A DNA stretch of 63,260 bases, the filler included, from an uncultured Methanosarcinales archaeon (GTDB lineage Archaea; Nanobdellota; Nanobdellia; Woesearchaeales; JACPBV01): the NCBI GenBank assembly GCA_964492935.1. It is 4 parts of 4 records of this genome, joined end to end, with 100 filler letters (N's around TTAATTAATTAA, not from the genome) between each part and the next. Parts side by side here need not be neighbours in the genome. Positions count along the whole stretch, not along the records: positions 21,088 to 41,050 come from CAZBLF010000021.1; 3 more parts are not named here. The stretch is one strand, 5' to 3'. This document shows, one piece after another, positions 24,001 through 39,000 of the stretch. The number at the start of each line of letters is the position of its first letter. Position 1 is the first letter of the stretch. Made by a program: the position numbers.

Positions 24001-27000
24001 ATCTATCTATTTTTGGTATGTGCATAGCACCTTCGAAATTCTTGCTCTTGACTTCTGAAGGTGCTGCGTCCCCGGATGGGGCAACCCCGCGCAACGCACT
24101 TAATTCTGAGGTATCAATGAATTTCGACCTGGTGATGCTATGCACATACTATTTTTGCACTATCTTTATATCTCCAACCGCCCTACCCCACACATGACTC
24201 AGCGCAAGATTCCCACAGGAAGCAAAATTCTCGATCGCATGCTCCAGGGAGGCTACGAGTCTGATGTCATTACAACACTCTACGGACCTGCCGGATCTGG
24301 CAAGACCATTCTCTGCATGCTTGCAGCCGTAACGATGGCCCGCTCAGGAAAGAAAGTAATCTACATCGACACCGAAAACAACTTCTCTACAGAGCGCCTC
24401 AAACAAATAGCACCCTATGACTACAACAAAATCCTAAAACAAATAGCATTCCTCCGTCCCGTCACCTTCGACGAGCAAAAGGACATGTTCACCAAACTAA
24501 CCAAACTCATCAACAAAGGAATTGGCCTAGTCATCATCGATACTATCGCCATGCTCTATCGCATAGCTCTCGGAAATGAAACCAATCCGTTCGCAATCAA
24601 TAAAGCACTAGGAACCCAACTCGCATTAATTAACGAGATTACAAGAAAGAAAGACATCCCAGTACTCTTAGCAAATCACAGCTATGCCGACTTCGATGAC
24701 AAGACCAAGGTAGTCGCCCTAGGCGGAGAAATCCTAAGATACAGTAGCAAATGCCTGATCGAGCTCGCATCCACACCAGAAGGCAACCGCAAAGCCATCC
24801 TCAGAAAGCACCGCTCAATCGCAGAGGAAACAGAAATCACTTTCAAGATCGTTGAGGCCGGCGTCCTCGGAACAAAAGAATCCAAAGGCTTCAAATTATT
24901 CTAACTCGAGTCATTTACCCAACACCCCATTATAGCAATCTTTTTAAAGATCTCACAATTAATGAAACCTAATCAAAAATGGCTAAAGGCAACAAAAAAT
25001 CAAGGTTAAGTGCATACGAACGGCTCGATATTCTTCTAGATAAAGACTCATTCACCGAACTCGATGAGCATGTTGTTCTTCAATCACACCAATTCAATCT
25101 CCAAGAGAAAAAGCAAGCTAAGGATGGTGTAGTTACCGGTTTCGGCACCATCCAAGGACGCAAAGTCTGCATCTATGCCCAAGACTTCTCCTTTATGGGC
25201 GGTTCCATGGGCGAAATGCACAACAAAAAGATTGCAAAGGTAATGGAATACTCATTAATGACGGGCATCCCCATCATAGGTTTATTAGATTCTGGCGGCG
25301 CCAGAATTCAAGAAGGAATCCAAGGCCTAGACGGTGGCGGACGCATCTTCAAACTCAACACTCTAGCATCCGGAGTTATCCCTCAAATTTCGGCAATCCT
25401 CGGCCCCTGTGCAGGAATAGCAGTCTATTCACCTGCCCTCACCGATTTCACCTTTATGGTTGAAGGCGTCAGCAACATGTTTATCACCGGACCTAACATC
25501 GTAAAAACCGTTACCGGCGAAGATATCAGTTTTGAAGATCTAGGGGGAGCACAAGTCCACGCAAAAAAATCAGGAGTAGCACATTTTACAGCAGCATCCG
25601 AAAAAGAATGCCTAGTGAGAATAAAAAAACTGCTAAGCTATCTTCCCTCAAACAACCTAGAAAATCCCCCATTCATTGATTATGAAGATTCCAAGAAAAG
25701 AAAAGCAAAACTCAAGAGCATTATCCCGAGCGATCCCAAAAAAAGCTATGACGTAAAAGAAGTCATCCAGGAAGTCATGGATAAAGATTCGTTTTGCGAG
25801 GTCATGGAAGACTTCGCCCAAAACGCAGTAACTGGTTTCGCAAGGCTTGACAATAAAGTAGTCGCAATCATAGCAAATCAACCGATGATCCTTGCAGGTT
25901 GCCTAGACATCAACAGCTCAGACAAGATAGCACGTTTCGTCAGATGCGCTGACGCCTTCAACATCCCAATCATTAATCTTGTTGACGTCACCGGCTATCT
26001 ACCCGGTACAGACCAGGAACATCAAGGCATCATCCGACACGGAGCAAAAATGCTGTATTCTTATGCAGAAGCCACCGTACCTAAAATCTCGTTAGTGATG
26101 CGTAAAGCATATGGGGGAGCCTATATCGCTCTAGCCTCAAAAGAAATGGCCTATGACTATGTTCTGAGCTGGCCCTCAGCCGAAATCGCAGTGATGGGGG
26201 CCGAGCAAGCAGTCAATCTTATTCACAGAAAGGAAATCGCAGCAGACAAAACCAATAAAAAGAGAAACGAGTACATTAAGCAGTACCAAAAGCAATTTCT
26301 AAATCCAGATGAGGCAGCACGTACCGGTAAGATCGACAAAATCATCGATCCCGAGGAAACGCGCATCCATCTTATCCGAGCAATCGAACTTCTTGAAGGT
26401 AAACGAGTAAAAGGAACCGGCCTCAAGGCATCAACCGCCAGAAAACACGGCAACATTCCGCTTTAAAATGCGCGAGCTAAAGATAAAGATCGATGGCAAG
26501 GAACATCTCGTCAAGGTAGAAGAAGTTCGCCAAGGCAAAGTTCGCGTCCATCTCCAAGGAGAGGTCTTCGAAGTAGATACGCAGAGCAATCGAGGAAAGG
26601 AATTAGAGGATGCCATTTCTGAGAAAAAAGACGCAGGCGGAAGCTCACACATCAAAGCCCCACTTCCCGGAACCGTATTCTCCATTAACGTAAAACCTGG
26701 GCAAGCAGTCAAGAAAGGAGAGAAATTACTGAGCCTCATGGCCATGAAGATGGAAAATGAAATAACCGCGCCCAAGTCGGGAAAAATAAAATCAATAGAA
26801 GTAAAACAACATCAGACCGTCGACAAAGGAGAACTTCTCATCACGCTACAATAATCAGGAAGCCTGAACTTCATTCCACCTGAACTCACGTAACTTAATC
26901 CCCTTCTTTCGCAACGATATGCTAATGTGCTGATTAAGCCGCAACAAACTCTGCGTCTCAAGCAACTCGTGTAATTCCTCAAGTTCATCTATGCCCATCA

Positions 27001-36000: not shown

Positions 36001-39000
36001 TCCGAAGTCATCGAGGAGGAAATAAAAAACGTACCAGTAGCAGTACTTACCGGTCCCAACCATGCAGAGGAAGTCATCAATAATATTCCTACTGCAACCG
36101 TTCTCGCTTCAGAAAACAAAGCAGTTCGTGAAACCCTGCAAAAAGAGCTGAGTACTCCGCACTTCAAAGTCTATCCTATCGAGGACATCATCGGCGCAGA
36201 GTACTGTGGAGCCCTCAAAAATGTATGTGCGATAGCGGTAGGGGTGTCTAAAGGCCTCCATCTCGGAGATAATGCCACAGGCTCGATCATCACCCTAGGT
36301 CTCGCCGAAATGGCACGCGTAGGGGCCGCTTTCGGAGCAAAAAGAGAAACCTATTACGGGCTCGCAGGAGTAGGAGATCTCGTAGCCACCTGTACCTCAT
36401 CCCACTCAAGAAATCTCTATCTAGGAGAACAGCTTGCTAAGAAGAAAACCTTCGAAGAAATCACCAAGGAAATGAAAGGAATGGTCGCTGAAGGAGCAAA
36501 TACTGCGCGCGTCCTTAACAATCTCGCAAAAAAGCAAAACATCAACCTACCCCTTACAAAACAGGTCTATGAAGTAATCTACAAAGAAAAAGAGGTAGAG
36601 AAAGCAGTAAAAGATCTGCTTACCGTACTCTAGCTATTCGTCCGTAAAGTCTTCTGCAGTCGCCTTAAACTCAGCATCCGTTTTAATCTTGCCCGTCGCC
36701 TTCAAATACTCTCGAGCCATGATGAAGAATAACAATCCAAGACTTTTTCTTCCCTTGTTATTGCAAGGAATCACCAAATCAATATTATTCGACTGGTTGT
36801 TTGTATCACATAATGCAACCACCGGAACTCCAACCTGATTTGCATCAAGAATAGCGTTTCGGTCTGGCCAAGCATCAGTAACCATAACCACCTTAGATTC
36901 TCTATAAATTTCCAATGCGGGGTTTGTCAACATTCCCGGAGGATATCGACCAGCAACCACATTAATGCCAGTAGTTTCATTTAACTTGCGCAACGGCTTC
37001 CATCCATTTTCTCGTCTACTGATAATTAAGATATCGTCAGGAGCAAATTGCGATAAAAATTGAACAGCAACCTTAATCCGCTCGTCAATACGCTGTAAAT
37101 TAAGCACACTCAATCCATCAGGTCGCGTCTTGTAAATAAAACGCTCCATGTATCGAGTTTTAAATTTAGTTCCAATATGAATACCGGATTTTAAATACAT
37201 ATCACTAGGTACAAGTAATTCTTTTTCGTTCGCCATCGTAATTCCTCCATGTGCATTTTTATCGCCTCAGCACACTATGTTCCCGCGAAGCTTGCAAGAA
37301 CCTTTGGCATTACTCTATAGAAAGCGCACTTCGTTTATAAATATATGGCATTTTCAAATTTTTTAGATTTAAGGCAGGGCAACAACATGTTGGTCCGCTA
37401 TAGTTTTCTACGCATTTCCAAGCAGTAAGTTTCAAATCCCCACTTCAGGTATGCTTTGTAAGCGTTGGGATTCGCTGGAGATACATTAAGAGAAGCGTGT
37501 TTAATTCCCTTGGATGCAAACCATGAAAATATACGAGTTTTAAATCTGGAACCGATCCGCTGCCTACGATAGTTCTTCTTGACAAAAAGGTCGCTGACAT
37601 GACCAAGTTTAGCTAGCTTATATACAATAATATTTTTTTTGATATAAGATAAGCTATATCCGACCAATCTTCCATGTTCTTCAGCAACCAGGACTAATCC
37701 ATTTCTATCCCTAATAGTCTCTACAGCAAATTTTTTGAAAAGGCTAGGTCCATGAGAATTGAGTTCATCGTATCTAGAAAGTTTCATATCCGTTTTAGCA
37801 ATAATCTTGCGGGTATCAAGCATGAATTCTTTCCACAGCTCAACGATCTCAGGTACATCTACAATCTTTGCCGTCCTAATGGTGACCATACTAACAATTA
37901 GAATTCCAACTTTATAAGCTTGCCGTCAATAATTAGGCTAGTCAACCATACTAAAATAAACATGTTCAAAACAGAATTGACCCTAACGAGCATTAAAACT
38001 TTCCTGAATAATTCTACGATACGTCTCAGCATTACCCAACACATACGTCTCTACGGCTACCGCAATCACCAACACAATCAAAGCAAAAATAACAAACATG
38101 ATCGTATTCTTTAAGATATGATTAAACCGTTCAGAAAAAGCCTCCTCTCGTAACAACCCCTTGGAAATGATGCCTCCCGCCGTCGCCGCACACACATACG
38201 CAAACGCTTCTAAAATCATGTGCGGAAATACAGTAGCAAACACAATAGAAAAATAGACAATAGGATTATTGGCAGTACTAATCGCTGCTGTTTTAGCTAA
38301 ATTACCAAAGATCGTACCCCACACCGACGCATTCCACACAATTAAGAATATTCCTCCCTCACCAAACACAAAGGCAGTAACAAAACACAAAATCATAACA
38401 CTCAAATTATTCATAAAGATATTCATGAACAAGCCCTGACTAAAGATAGCCTTTCCAGCAGTCCCATATCCATACAACACATTAATCTGATTTTCAAAGA
38501 TATGATTAGTTGCAAGTGACGGCAACATCAATGCAAAAAACGAGAATCCTAATAACACGCCCAAAAACAAAAGAGTATACACCTTAAACGAATTGTGATG
38601 GTCAAAAATAAAAGTGTGCAGATGGAACTCATCATTAACACTCTCCATCTCCTCCTCTTGCCGCAACATCTGGCTCAGCGTCGGATAAATCATCAAAGAA
38701 ATAAAGGCAACGCCAACAATCGCAGGATCTTCTGGAAACAACAAGACTGCAGCCCCAATACCAATAAAAGCATATCCTAATCCAAGAAGAAACGCGTAAA
38801 TGGGCGTTCGCTCAATCAATTCAAGCGGGTACAGTCTTTCCAGCACCATGTTCTAATTCCTCGAATACCTCATCGATATGACTATTGTCCCAGCCCTGCT
38901 GCAGTAATTGCGGCTTAAAGTATTGTTCCAAATGCTGCTTCGTATAGCCTCGTTGCACATACGCCGAAAGATATTGCTTCAGCTGATCCTTCTGTACATT

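Follow-up and report, generated by a model that had tools for sequence, protein, structure and literature searches.

A conserved gene cluster for putative fatty-acid-based lipid synthesis in a Woesearchaeota-type archaeon with a MEP pathway and no recognized trans-prenyl diphosphate synthase

What does an archaeon do with a complete MEP pathway when the enzymes of archaeal ether-lipid synthesis are missing, and what is the purpose of a cluster of fatty-acid-type genes in its genome? The question is raised by contig C21 of the genome of a small marine DPANN archaeon of Woesearchaeota type (G000; 1.15 Mb in 57 contigs, 84.8 % complete, 0.13 % contamination), which belongs to a clade already known for its bacterial MEP pathway. 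The window analyzed (63,260 nt) consists of contigs C20, C21, C23 and C49, placed end to end in the plus strand with runs of N between them; positions on C21 translate to the window coordinates given below with a confirmed offset of 21087, and coordinates elsewhere are preceded by the contig name.

The core of this pattern is mostly in print for Woesearchaeota, in passages of PMC8204110, PMC8421398 and PMC10936187. The first of these (Castelle 2021) describes the MEP pathway from 52 Woesearchaeota that form a monophyletic clade, with the pathway's genes lying beside those for bacterial fatty-acid synthesis and glycerol-3-phosphate dehydrogenase; in PMC8421398 (Huang 2021), subgroup J has a MEP pathway with fused ispD/F and neither GGGPS nor DGGGPS; and PMC10936187, a 2024 mBio paper on DPANN archaea from oxygen-deficient zones, reports FabG, FabI and FabZ together with MEP. 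These published passages do not address loss of the trans-prenyl diphosphate synthase, but it is implicit in Table S3 of PMC8204110, with values for 196 Woesearchaeota of 0.255 for polyprenyl_synt versus 0.704 for the cis enzyme. The missing trans-prenyltransferase and a thiolase/DUF35 design are modest additions to the published picture.

The survey's finding placed a set of acetyl-CoA carboxylase parts, BirA, FabZ, two thiolases, FabG, a PlsC-type acyltransferase and GpsA at 24979–36633, and our profile matches reproduced it. Next to the flanking archaeal marker RadB (24140–24904, plus strand; TIGR02237, 205 bits, cut-off 172.4), a carboxyltransferase of the fused alpha/beta PccB type (24979–26466, plus; PF01039, 583.6 bits) is assigned to an acyl-CoA (acetyl/propionyl-CoA) carboxylase; its best NCBIfam match, TIGR01117, stays below cut-off (686.9 bits, cut-off 998.8), and its orthologs in G008, G005 and G006 are 61–69 % identical. 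It is followed by a biotin carboxyl carrier protein (26468–26854, plus; PF00364, 69.5 bits; NF005117, 96.8 bits, below cut-off) and, on the minus strand, by the biotin-protein ligase BirA (27479–28213; TIGR00121, 145.9 bits, cut-off 83.1) and the biotin carboxylase AccC (28137–30008; TIGR00514, 632.3 bits, cut-off 626.5). AccC carries a conserved N-terminal extension of 125 residues, so that relatives align over ca. 620 residues, and this extension had no match at E <= 10 in a Pfam search. The plus strand then contains a FabZ-like hotdog-fold 3-hydroxyacyl thioester dehydratase (30048–30620; PF07977, 75.4 bits; TIGR01750, 103.5 bits, below the cut-off of 155), archaeal-type thiolase 1 (30617–31753), a DUF362 protein (31753–32883; PF04015, 90.4 bits), archaeal-type thiolase 2 (32885–34012), a FabG-type 3-oxoacyl thioester reductase of the SDR family (34009–34752; TIGR01830, 302.6 bits, cut-off 297.75), a PF01553 (PlsC/GPAT-family) glycerolipid acyltransferase (34844–35482; 83.5 bits) and the bacterial-type, NAD(P)H-dependent sn-glycerol-3-phosphate dehydrogenase GpsA (35653–36633; NF000942, 393.3 bits, cut-off 257), whose homologs, 31–47 % identical, are nearly all bacterial among 77 named loci. 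The archaeal/eukaryal-type ribosomal protein uS2 (36634–37236, minus; TIGR01012, 249.4 bits, cut-off 211.5) marks the contig as archaeal.

Gene order is conserved well beyond this genome. GpsA adjoins uS2 in all 14 of the relatives' loci, and in nine of the 14 the FabZ-thiolase-DUF362-thiolase-FabG block is whole and the order runs FabZ-thiolase-DUF362-thiolase-FabG-(ACAD-EtfB-EtfA)-PlsC-PlsC-GpsA-uS2; most of the other loci end at contig ends, and G005 lacks the block. Most relatives have two tandem copies of the PF01553 acyltransferase at the locus, versus one in G000. Synteny links the fatty-acid genes with both the glycerolipid genes and archaeal uS2, in an arrangement that is more than chance. 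The relatives' tallies, here and below, take in the unpublished genomes G005 and G013.

Since G000 is incomplete and fragmented, and its MEP genes, cis-prenyltransferase, FabI and lipid cluster are spread over six different contigs, the absences or the mixture of bacterial and archaeal genes might come from an incomplete or chimeric bin. This is very improbable, given the low contamination and the archaeal markers (uS2, RadB, TFIIE-alpha, an S13/S15 N-domain protein and a wyosine enzyme) on the contigs that carry the cluster, DXS/DXR/IspDF/IspE and IspG. In addition, sequencing runs from several studies contain the stretch at no less than 99 % identity: a 3992-nt contig from the independent marine run X10 crosses the GpsA–uS2 junction with no mismatches, and a second contig of an independent run covers 29973–34019. 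The trans-prenyltransferase is moreover missing from 11 of the 13 family relatives, five of these 11 being 92–96 % complete (G002, G005, G008, G009, and G010), whereas IspG occurs in all 13 as well as in G000. The absence of lipid and prenyl genes is thus lineage-wide, and we reject an assembly artifact.

All seven MEP activities and the single cis-prenyltransferase claimed by the survey were recovered: DXS (C7:13379–15253), DXR (C7:15250–16395), fused IspDF (C7:26478–27557), IspE (C7:29078–29929; TIGR00154, 249.6, cut-off 138.7), IspG (C26:429–1664), IspH (C41:1220–2176) and the cis enzyme (C40:1655–2332; TIGR00055, 235, cut-off 109.6). The claimed lack of trans-prenyl synthase, UbiA, GGGPS and G1P dehydrogenase likewise held in G000. 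There were no candidates for polyprenyl_synt (PF00348) or UbiA (PF01040); a custom HMM built from the trans enzymes of three relatives reached a best E of 0.62 against the six-frame translation, and the GGGPS family (PF01884) gave a single 18.5-bit stretch, below cut-off, at C6:8299–8484. Of two PF13685 matches, considered as G1P dehydrogenase, one is AroB (TIGR01357, 386.8, cut-off 305), the other an Fe alcohol dehydrogenase; neither a G1P dehydrogenase nor an HMG-CoA reductase was found in G000, the latter being present in one of 31 genomes. MiaA was absent from the five genomes searched. Profile searches thus indicate a genuine, family-wide loss of the trans-prenyl diphosphate synthase.

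The cis enzyme is present in all 13 family relatives. Its sequence in G000 shows no extra divergence and no sign of changed primer specificity, being 56.5 and 59.0 % identical to orthologs from genomes in which a trans enzyme is retained (G011 and G013) versus 58.7 and 61.4 % for those from trans-less genomes (G008 and G009). A cis-prenyltransferase without an IPP source or a trans enzyme is common in the order (G016, G019, G025, G029, and G030), and therefore precursor import occurs; the missing trans enzyme in G000 may share this trivial cause.

An improbable alternative is that isoprenoid membrane lipids are still made by enzymes outside current families, for instance from cis-prenyltransferase products, or by an unrecognized prenyl synthase and a prenyl-glycerol transferase feeding CarS. 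It would account for a complete MEP pathway in all 14 family genomes, for the archaeal CarS kept in five of five, and for a second, divergent cis-prenyltransferase paralog (ca. 125 bits) in 10 of 13 relatives. Nevertheless, this paralog is absent from G000, G001, G004 and G005, the family and custom-HMM searches yielded no candidate, and PgsA and PssA exceed the cut-offs of diacylglycerol-type equivalogs. Scanning G000 for paired DDxxD motifs returned six ORFs, and the three mid-sized ones followed up were two-component, membrane-anchored and secreted coiled-coil proteins, none a credible prenyl synthase.

The reading that we favor, by a little over even chances, is that the locus is a conserved lipid-synthesis cluster for fatty-acid, glycerol-3-phosphate-based lipids, and that the MEP pathway serves a glycan carrier; each step proposed here is drawn from gene families and synteny. 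MEP would not supply the membrane lipids; its IPP would pass to the UPPS-like cis-prenyltransferase, whose product would be the glycan carrier for AglB, found in G000, G001 and G008. As there is no trans-prenyl diphosphate synthase, the cis enzyme would take DMAPP itself as allylic primer, or the primer would come from a partner cell.

Acyl chains would grow on CoA rather than ACP, on two archaeal-type thiolases held by the DUF362 protein, followed by the FabG-type reductase and then the FabZ-type dehydratase. The gene set fits CoA-based synthesis, and the "bacterial-type" label of the survey stands for GpsA, PgsA and PssA but does not describe the set as a whole: KAS (PF00109) is absent, as claimed, from G000, and also from G001, G009 and G010, FabD from G000, G001 and G010, and AcpS from five of five genomes. 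The ACP-like protein reported does exist as one ORF in G000, but has a counterpart in none of 30 relatives. The thiolases are of archaeal type, with a DUF35-domain partner, and the cytidylyltransferase is archaeal CarS, not CdsA.

Both candidate condensing enzymes found their best PDB sequence matches in 7yvy (5.6e-63 for thiolase 1, 1.1e-59 for thiolase 2) and 6esq (4.7e-52 and 7.8e-51), the latter being the thiolase of the thiolase/HMGCS/DUF35 complex of M. thermolithotrophicus, and residues C85 and H324 in the first and C81 and H321 in the second are invariant among 10 orthologs. The start of the DUF362 protein at 31753 is conserved with relatives, although the longest ORF begins at 31678. 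In an AF2 model (pLDDT 74.3, pTM 0.80), Foldseek matched its first ca. 100 residues to DUF35 subunits (6ok1_D, 7pxp_A, 6esq_E, and 5m3k_B; probability 1.00) and the remainder to LarA-like proteins. The protein thus appears to be a fusion of a DUF35-like domain, of predicted zinc ribbon and OB fold and with no Pfam match to DUF35, to a LarA-N-like DUF362 domain; the four zinc-ribbon cysteines are retained in nine relatives and lost in G000. We infer that it is the thiolase scaffold. Because thiolases condense without decarboxylation, the cluster-linked carboxylase has no assigned consumer; the biotin carboxylase system might provide a carboxylated extender or have another role. A ketothiolase/DUF35 design, read here from sequence and a fold model, has a precedent in the fatty-acid synthase complex of S. 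acidocaldarius, for whose ketothiolase the use of malonyl-CoA was disproved (bioRxiv 10.1101/2024.07.05.601840).

Enoyl reduction would depend in G000 on the unlinked FabI (C2:51264–52127), and in most relatives on the acyl-CoA dehydrogenase/EtfAB module inside the cluster. FabI is present in G000, G001, G004, G006, G012 and G028, and acyl-CoA dehydrogenase in G002, G003, G005, G007–G011, G013 and G022; the two never occur together in a genome, each of the 14 family genomes has one or the other, and tblastn found neither ACAD nor Etf in G000. The two systems therefore replace each other across genomes, perhaps through two independent events, because the relatives share ancestry, and this pattern suggests a reductive direction for the cluster.

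The direction matters, since the cluster could be mainly fermentative or catabolic, with membrane lipids derived from a host and only remodeled by CarS, the PF01553 enzymes and the CDP-alcohol transferases. Redox balance and energy would then come from reverse beta-oxidation to short acids by the thiolases, the FabG/FabZ-like enzymes and Bcd-EtfAB, or these enzymes would instead degrade host fatty acids. The ACAD-EtfB-EtfA genes within most relatives' clusters would agree with this, and the passages on subgroup J in PMC8421398 count EtfAB/Bcd among its energy-conservation gains, suggest that these archaea cannot make membrane lipids and describe lipid uptake from hosts as common among DPANN. 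We nonetheless consider it unlikely, if the most serious competitor: GpsA, two acyltransferases and the carboxylase with BirA are joined to the cluster in up to 14 genomes, and FabG scores above the equivalog cut-off for 3-oxoacyl-ACP reductase. In G000, G001, G004, G006 and G012 the bifurcating module gives way to FabI, an enoyl reductase of biosynthesis without an energy-conserving role. The only AMP-binding enzyme seen in G000 is of acetyl-CoA-synthetase size, a name taken from its length, and thus there is no obvious long-chain acyl-CoA ligase.

Under the lipid-synthesis reading, GpsA would provide sn-glycerol-3-phosphate, which PF01553 acyltransferases would esterify to phosphatidic acid. 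G000 has three further PF01553 genes outside the cluster (two on C41, one on C1). PF01553 proteins score 53.2 against the PlsC subfamily, below its cut-off of 102.95, and no GPAT was identified by family. PlsY (PF02660) is absent from G000, as the survey had it, and from the 13 family relatives. Phosphatidic acid would be activated by the CarS-like enzyme of a CarS-Psd-PgsA/PssA operon (C3:14751–16932), and head groups added by PssA/Psd and PgsA. CarS (150.4, CDP-archaeol synthase equivalog cut-off 148) is the only CTP:lipid cytidylyltransferase found, is present in five of five genomes, none with a true CdsA, and suits the handling of diacyl lipids no better than that of archaeal, perhaps scavenged, ones, a point in favor of remodeling. 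So are the six PF01066 matches, two within one fused ORF, in so small a genome, which suggest head-group remodeling. Within the window, C23 carries a CDP-diacylglycerol-glycerol-3-phosphate phosphatidyltransferase, PgsA (55787–56296, minus; TIGR00560, 152.6 bits, cut-off 109.1; PF01066, 148.3 bits), and C20 a further CDP-alcohol phosphatidyltransferase (19169–19681, minus; PF01066, 53.8 bits) that weakly matches archaetidylinositol-phosphate synthase (53.1 bits, cut-off 180).

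The gene cluster at positions 24979-36633 of the window lies on contig C21 of G000, the marine DPANN archaeal genome under study (1.15 Mb in 57 contigs, 84.8 % complete and 0.13 % contaminated), from which the window combines four contigs separated by N runs. All the cluster genes reported by the survey were borne out by ORF calling and Pfam/NCBIfam scans. A biotin carboxylase (AccC, TIGR00514), FabG (TIGR01830) and GpsA (NF000942, 393.3 bits versus a cut-off of 257) scored over their cut-offs; the cluster also contains genes for a PccB-type carboxyltransferase, BCCP, BirA, a FabZ-like protein, a PF01553 protein and two thiolases, with the gene for a DUF362 protein situated between the latter. 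The genes on either side code for RadB (24140-24904, + strand) and an archaeal/eukaryal-type uS2 (36634-37236, - strand), each above its equivalog cut-off, and the bacterial-looking genes are therefore on an archaeal contig.

We compared by tblastn the GpsA neighbourhoods of 14 relatives. Gene uS2 adjoins GpsA in all 14 loci, and acyltransferases are found upstream of GpsA in 13 of them, the exception being G009, whose contig is cut. The FabZ-thiolase-DUF362-thiolase-FabG block is whole in nine of the 14 loci and incomplete in G001, G009, G013 and G028 due to contig ends; the G005 locus contains carboxylase and ACAD-Etf genes, with the FabZ-to-FabG block missing at that place. Additionally, the 6.6-kb core of the cluster was found in 20 public runs, six of them possibly the source of the genome; these runs, from 17 studies, are metagenomes with the labels marine, seawater, aquatic or hydrothermal-vent, and no RNA run was among those listed. 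Among four non-source runs compared, a contig of 3992 nt from run X10 joins GpsA to uS2 without mismatches, and another of 4047 nt from run X7 covers positions 29973-34019. The conserved synteny in the relatives and these bridging contigs rule out an assembly or binning artefact. A search for related loci using GpsA retrieved mainly distant bacterial loci, with no close relative among them. In the X10 contig, 638 bases (37342-37979) are replaced by four others and a 163-residue ORF (37398-37889, - strand) is lost with them, which is therefore a strain-level indel.

The survey's finding described this cluster as bacterial-type, which holds for GpsA but not for the fatty-acid genes as a set, which do not make up a bacterial FAS II. 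No KAS (PF00109) was detected in G000, G001, G009 or G010, no FabD (PF00698) in G000, G001 or G010, and no AcpS in any of five genomes searched; a conserved ACP is also missing. An orphan 99-residue ACP-like ORF with a GYDSL motif (G000:C2:4702-4998, + strand) adjoins the RNase P Rpr2 gene, in a genome without AcpS, and is absent from all 30 relatives. Contig C11 of G008 carries several KAS, ACP and AMP-binding genes, forming a cluster of polyketide or FAS II-like type, which is missing in the other four genomes searched; it is either a transfer or part of the 3 % contamination. The FabZ-like protein reached 103.5 bits (cut-off, 155), and FabG passed its equivalog cut-off; the thioester carrier of these enzymes would be CoA. 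The 12 best matches of the FabI-like protein all carry the name FabI; the top one reached 299 bits, and each fell short of its cut-off (299-477).

Both thiolases are nearest to archaeal acetoacetyl-CoA thiolases, including that of the thiolase/HMG-CoA synthase/DUF35 complex of Methanothermococcus thermolithotrophicus (PDB 6esq, matched at 4.7e-52 and 7.8e-51), and the catalytic Cys and His are retained in all ten aligned orthologues. In the relatives, the DUF362 part of the protein encoded between the thiolases is preceded by a CxxC...CxxC pattern and a beta-rich domain. In an AlphaFold model of the DUF362 protein (pLDDT 74.3), the first ca. 100 residues match four solved DUF35 subunits with a Foldseek probability of 1.00 (24 % identity to the DUF35 chain 6esq_E), and the remainder matches LarA-like proteins. 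The N-terminal domain of the G010 orthologue did not match any Pfam DUF35 family at E <= 10; on the modeled structure, the N-terminal domain of this middle gene is likely a DUF35 domain. In the ESM-Atlas, the clusters nearest to the DUF362 protein carry the label Candidatus Woesearchaeota; this and the agreement with published traits are the basis for assigning the genome to Woesearchaeota. The four zinc-ribbon Cys of the DUF35-like domain (window 31753-31850) are kept in nine relatives and are all substituted in G000. As differences from the 6esq system, no HMG-CoA reductase was found in G000, and the neighbours of the module are fatty-acid and glycerolipid genes.

The putative enoyl reductase varies among relatives. 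In eight of the 14 loci the acyltransferases have a gene for an acyl-CoA dehydrogenase (ACAD) as neighbour, which in turn adjoins EtfB and EtfA, and in six of these eight ACAD-EtfB-EtfA is situated between FabG and the acyltransferases. We found no ACAD, EtfB or EtfA anywhere in G000, whose FabI-like gene is on contig C2. Among 31 genomes, FabI was present in G000, G001, G004, G006, G012 and G028, and ACAD in G002, G003, G005, G007-G011, G013 and G022; none had both, and one or the other occurred in every one of the 14 family genomes. This mutual exclusion fits alternative enzymes for the same step, the reduction of the enoyl thioester, and thus a pathway running in the synthetic direction. 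The genomes with FabI look like one subclade, because they also have the long form of IspG, and would therefore represent few independent exchange events.

This design is comparable to the ACP-independent synthase of S. acidocaldarius which, in the accessible text of the preprint (bioRxiv 10.1101/2024.07.05.601840), likewise uses CoA chemistry, a ketothiolase with DUF35 and an SDR FabG homologue as ketoacyl-CoA reductase, without ACP. Nevertheless, the candidate dehydratase of our cluster is a FabZ-type hotdog protein and the candidate enoyl reductase is FabI or ACAD-Etf, as opposed to the MaoC and MDR enzymes described there. According to the same portions of text, G000 also differs in the fusion of DUF35 to DUF362, the two thiolase paralogues, the linked carboxylase and the synteny with G3P acylation. 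The terms "DPANN" and "Woesearchae" do not occur in the text available to us of that preprint.

Genes for AccC, BCCP, a PccB-type carboxyltransferase and a biotin ligase are all present, an acyl-CoA such as acetyl- or propionyl-CoA being the predicted substrate. The carboxylase is tightly linked to the cluster, although thiolases require no malonyl-CoA; for the S. acidocaldarius synthase, the use of malonyl-CoA is reported as disproved in the accessible part of the source (bioRxiv 10.1101/2024.07.05.601840). AccC has an N-terminal extension of 125 residues (window 29634-30008, - strand), without a Pfam match, that is kept in relatives (alignments of ca. 620 residues). Biotin synthesis genes, coding for a dethiobiotin-synthase-type AAA_26 protein, a BioB-like radical SAM protein with a BATS domain and a class I/II aminotransferase, are located at G000:C7:30852-37224, a few kb from IspE, and fit the biotin need of the carboxylase.

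The survey also listed a full MEP pathway and the lack of a trans-prenyl synthase and of the ether-lipid core enzymes, and both observations stood. All seven MEP activities (DXS, DXR, IspD, IspE, IspF, IspG and IspH) are encoded in G000, with IspD and IspF fused, as deduced from matches to PF13292 (371 bits), PF02670/PF08436/PF13288, PF01128 fused with PF02542, TIGR00154 (249.6; cut-off, 138.7), PF04551 (374.5) and PF02401 (317.3). The contigs with these genes also carry those for TFIIE-alpha, a ribosomal S13/S15 N-domain protein and a wyosine enzyme. Across G000 and 30 relatives, 13 of them from the same family and with the unpublished genomes G005 and G013 counted in, IspG was found in all 13 family relatives and in 19 of the 31 genomes, and HMG-CoA reductase in one of the 31.

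Family searches for the trans-prenyl and ether-lipid enzymes were negative in G000. The polyprenyl_synt family (PF00348) had no match in this genome and occurred in two of the 13 family relatives (G011 and G013), in 11 of the 31 genomes overall and in all 14 controls. UbiA (PF01040) was absent from G000 and G001 and present in five of the 13 family relatives. For the GGGP synthase PcrB, G000 gave 18.5 bits (cut-off, 23.9), and the 31 genomes yielded only partial matches of up to 28.8 bits over profile positions 77-220. G1P dehydrogenase (EgsA) was not found in G000, where the sole two matches to PF13685 are AroB and an Fe alcohol dehydrogenase. A custom HMM was built with the trans-prenyl synthases of three of four fetched relatives, omitting the G013 sequence (L003) because of an internal stop; it did not retrieve anything from the six-frame translation of G000 (best E, 0.62). 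A scan for paired DDxxD motifs in G000 identified six ORFs, and the follow-up covered the three mid-sized ones, the other three having 735-2122 aa. None of the three mid-sized ORFs is a credible trans-prenyl synthase: one is a histidine-kinase/response-regulator and two, without an assigned family, are apparently membrane-anchored or secreted. Five family relatives without a trans-prenyl synthase are 92-96 % complete, and the loss is therefore a property of the lineage. Among the genomes that keep one, G011 has an IdsA-like short-chain synthase (L004, G011:C33) adjoining a type-1 IPP isomerase and a UbiA homologue, a module that G013 retains as well, and G028 a long-chain synthase (L005, G028:C5) adjoining MenA.

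The cis-prenyltransferase of G000 is UPPS-like, being over the cut-off of TIGR00055 and with 1f75 as the nearest structure (1e-48). This enzyme or its paralogue occurs in all 13 family relatives; the second, divergent paralogue (ca. 125 bits) is present in ten of them and missing in G000, G001, G004 and G005. AglB was found in G000, G001 and G008, and neither MiaA nor the polyprenyl-phosphate GlcNAc-1-P transferase family (PF00953) in any of five genomes searched. The simplest reading is that MEP supplies a glycan-carrier polyprenol. The G000 enzyme shares fold and family (E from 1e-31 to 1e-36) with plant cis-prenyltransferases designated in the PDB as dimethylallylcistransferase CPT1, neryl-diphosphate synthase 1 and (2Z,6Z)-farnesyl diphosphate synthase; these start from DMAPP, and the family can therefore prime without a trans enzyme. 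It is, however, nearer to the FPP-specific bacterial UPPS (1f75) than to the plant enzymes, and its divergence from orthologues in genomes keeping a trans enzyme is not greater than from the others. Several order-level relatives, including G029 (a single contig rated 100 % complete), have a cis enzyme yet no IspG, HMG-CoA reductase or trans enzyme, which evidently implies import of precursors in this order. Just upstream of the G000 gene there is a 186-residue ORF (G000:C40:1064-1624, + strand) that is basic at its N-terminus and belongs to no Pfam family; in ten of 14 relatives' loci (L023-L035) its matches are within ca. 1.5 kb of the cis-prenyltransferase.

With respect to glycerolipid assembly, G000 contains four PF01553 proteins, one in the cluster, two in tandem on C41 near IspH and one on C1, all below the TIGR00530 cut-off. 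That on C1 (G000:C1:53492-54913, - strand) is a 473-residue ORF combining PF01553 with a radical-SAM/Fer4_12 domain, directly beside NrdD; the second acyltransferase in the clusters of the relatives matches this ORF best (47 % to G010). The ORF represents either a true fusion with an NrdG-like activase or the result of a lost stop codon. PlsY was absent from G000 and the 13 family relatives. The sole cytidylyltransferase is an equivalog of the CDP-archaeol synthase CarS (NF003114, 150.4 bits versus a cut-off of 148; PF01864, 115.9 bits), with CarS-like genes in all five genomes searched; in the search for CdsA, the lone PF01148 match was partial (34.8 bits) and fell within the CarS-like gene. 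The CarS operon also holds Psd (PF02666, 153.7) and a fused PgsA-like/PssA protein (TIGR00473, 123.4 with a cut-off of 107). A stand-alone PgsA (TIGR00560, 152.6 with a cut-off of 109.1) is found at window 55787-56296, and PF01066 has six matches in total in G000. The genome thus has FabG, FabZ-like, FabI-like, GpsA, PF01553, PgsA, PssA and Psd in common with bacterial FAS II and phospholipid synthesis but, compared to the bacterial GpsA/PlsX-PlsY/PlsC/CdsA route, lacks KAS, FabD, AcpS, a conserved ACP, PlsY and CdsA.

The gene observations of the survey hold, and the interpretation attached to them is supported in part only. We lean slightly towards a hybrid pathway of CoA-based fatty-acid synthesis and G3P-ester lipids, with MEP serving the cis-prenyltransferase. 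CarS is the chief point against a purely diacyl reading, and may work on scavenged archaeal lipids; the main rival is that the genes serve fermentation, or remodelling with scavenged lipids, which we consider rather improbable, the exchange of FabI and ACAD fitting synthesis. The hybrid pathway could be taken further, to a membrane wholly of fatty-acyl sn-glycerol-3-phosphate esters, with chains made by an archaeal-type thiolase/DUF35 synthase in place of bacterial FAS II, CarS co-opted for CDP-diacylglycerol and, without a trans-prenyl synthase, a DMAPP-started cis-prenyl glycan-carrier polyprenol as the sole isoprenoid; this stronger version appears unlikely. If true, the lipid divide would have been crossed in nature, with parts from both domains. 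Ester-linked fatty-acid membranes, if real, would make these archaea a living case in which to test the lipid divide and how a swap of membrane chemistry is possible, a question that bears on the origin of the eukaryotic membrane. Clonable parts include the thiolase/DUF35-DUF362 module, a CarS maybe accepting diacyl lipids and a cis-prenyltransferase that maybe works without a trans-made primer.

Marine Group II/III lineages retain GGGPS/DGGGPS and the mevalonate pathway, whereas G000 has neither. As it occurs in G000, they are archaea with bacterial glycerolipid genes (GpsA, PlsC and PlsY, according to the available sections of PMC6431249); those sections also report GpsA in Woesearchaeota and PlsC/PlsY in DPANN (Coleman 2019). 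For Woesearchaeota the overall pattern is in print already; the value added here is a sharper parts list and the contrast of FabI with Bcd-Etf, and not a new phenomenon. In the parts of these sources available, 52 Woesearchaeota forming a monophyletic clade were described as having MEP genes adjacent to those for bacterial fatty-acid synthesis and G3P dehydrogenase, UbiA being close by (PMC8204110), in contrast to G000, which lacks UbiA; subgroup J was described as having MEP with a fused ispD/F, no GGGPS/DGGGPS and a gain of EtfAB/Bcd (Huang 2021, PMC8421398), and Woesearchaeota from oxygen-deficient zones as having FabG/FabI/FabZ and MEP (2024 mBio, PMC10936187). To the extent covered by those parts, G000 is like the MEP Woesearchaeota clade in its fused IspDF, FabG/FabI/FabZ, bacterial G3P dehydrogenase and lack of GGGPS/DGGGPS, and the EtfAB/Bcd of that clade (PMC8421398) corresponds to the ACAD-Etf genes of our relatives. 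In Table S3 of Castelle 2021 (PMC8204110, as accessible), polyprenyl_synt is listed for a fraction of 0.255 and the cis enzyme for 0.704 of 196 Woesearchaeota. The accessible portions of PMC8204110, PMC8421398 and PMC10936187 are silent on the trans-prenyl loss, the absence of KAS/FabD/AcpS/ACP, the thiolase-DUF35/DUF362 module, the FabI versus ACAD-Etf exchange and CarS as sole cytidylyltransferase; a wider literature search, among the texts it made available, did not find the trans-prenyl loss, the thiolase/DUF35 design or the FabI/ACAD exchange discussed.

A 135-nt element with terminal inverted repeats is present in nine near-identical and two diverged copies across G000, at window 24016-24150, 20775-20920 and 48460-48593 and on contigs C13, C4, C39, C30, C3 and C1. 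The copy at 24016-24150 did not match any tRNA or Rfam family. The element has a folding energy of -58.1 kcal/mol (z = -8.05). Four independent runs display a spike in depth and loose ends at this element, which looks like a MITE or other mobile structured repeat.
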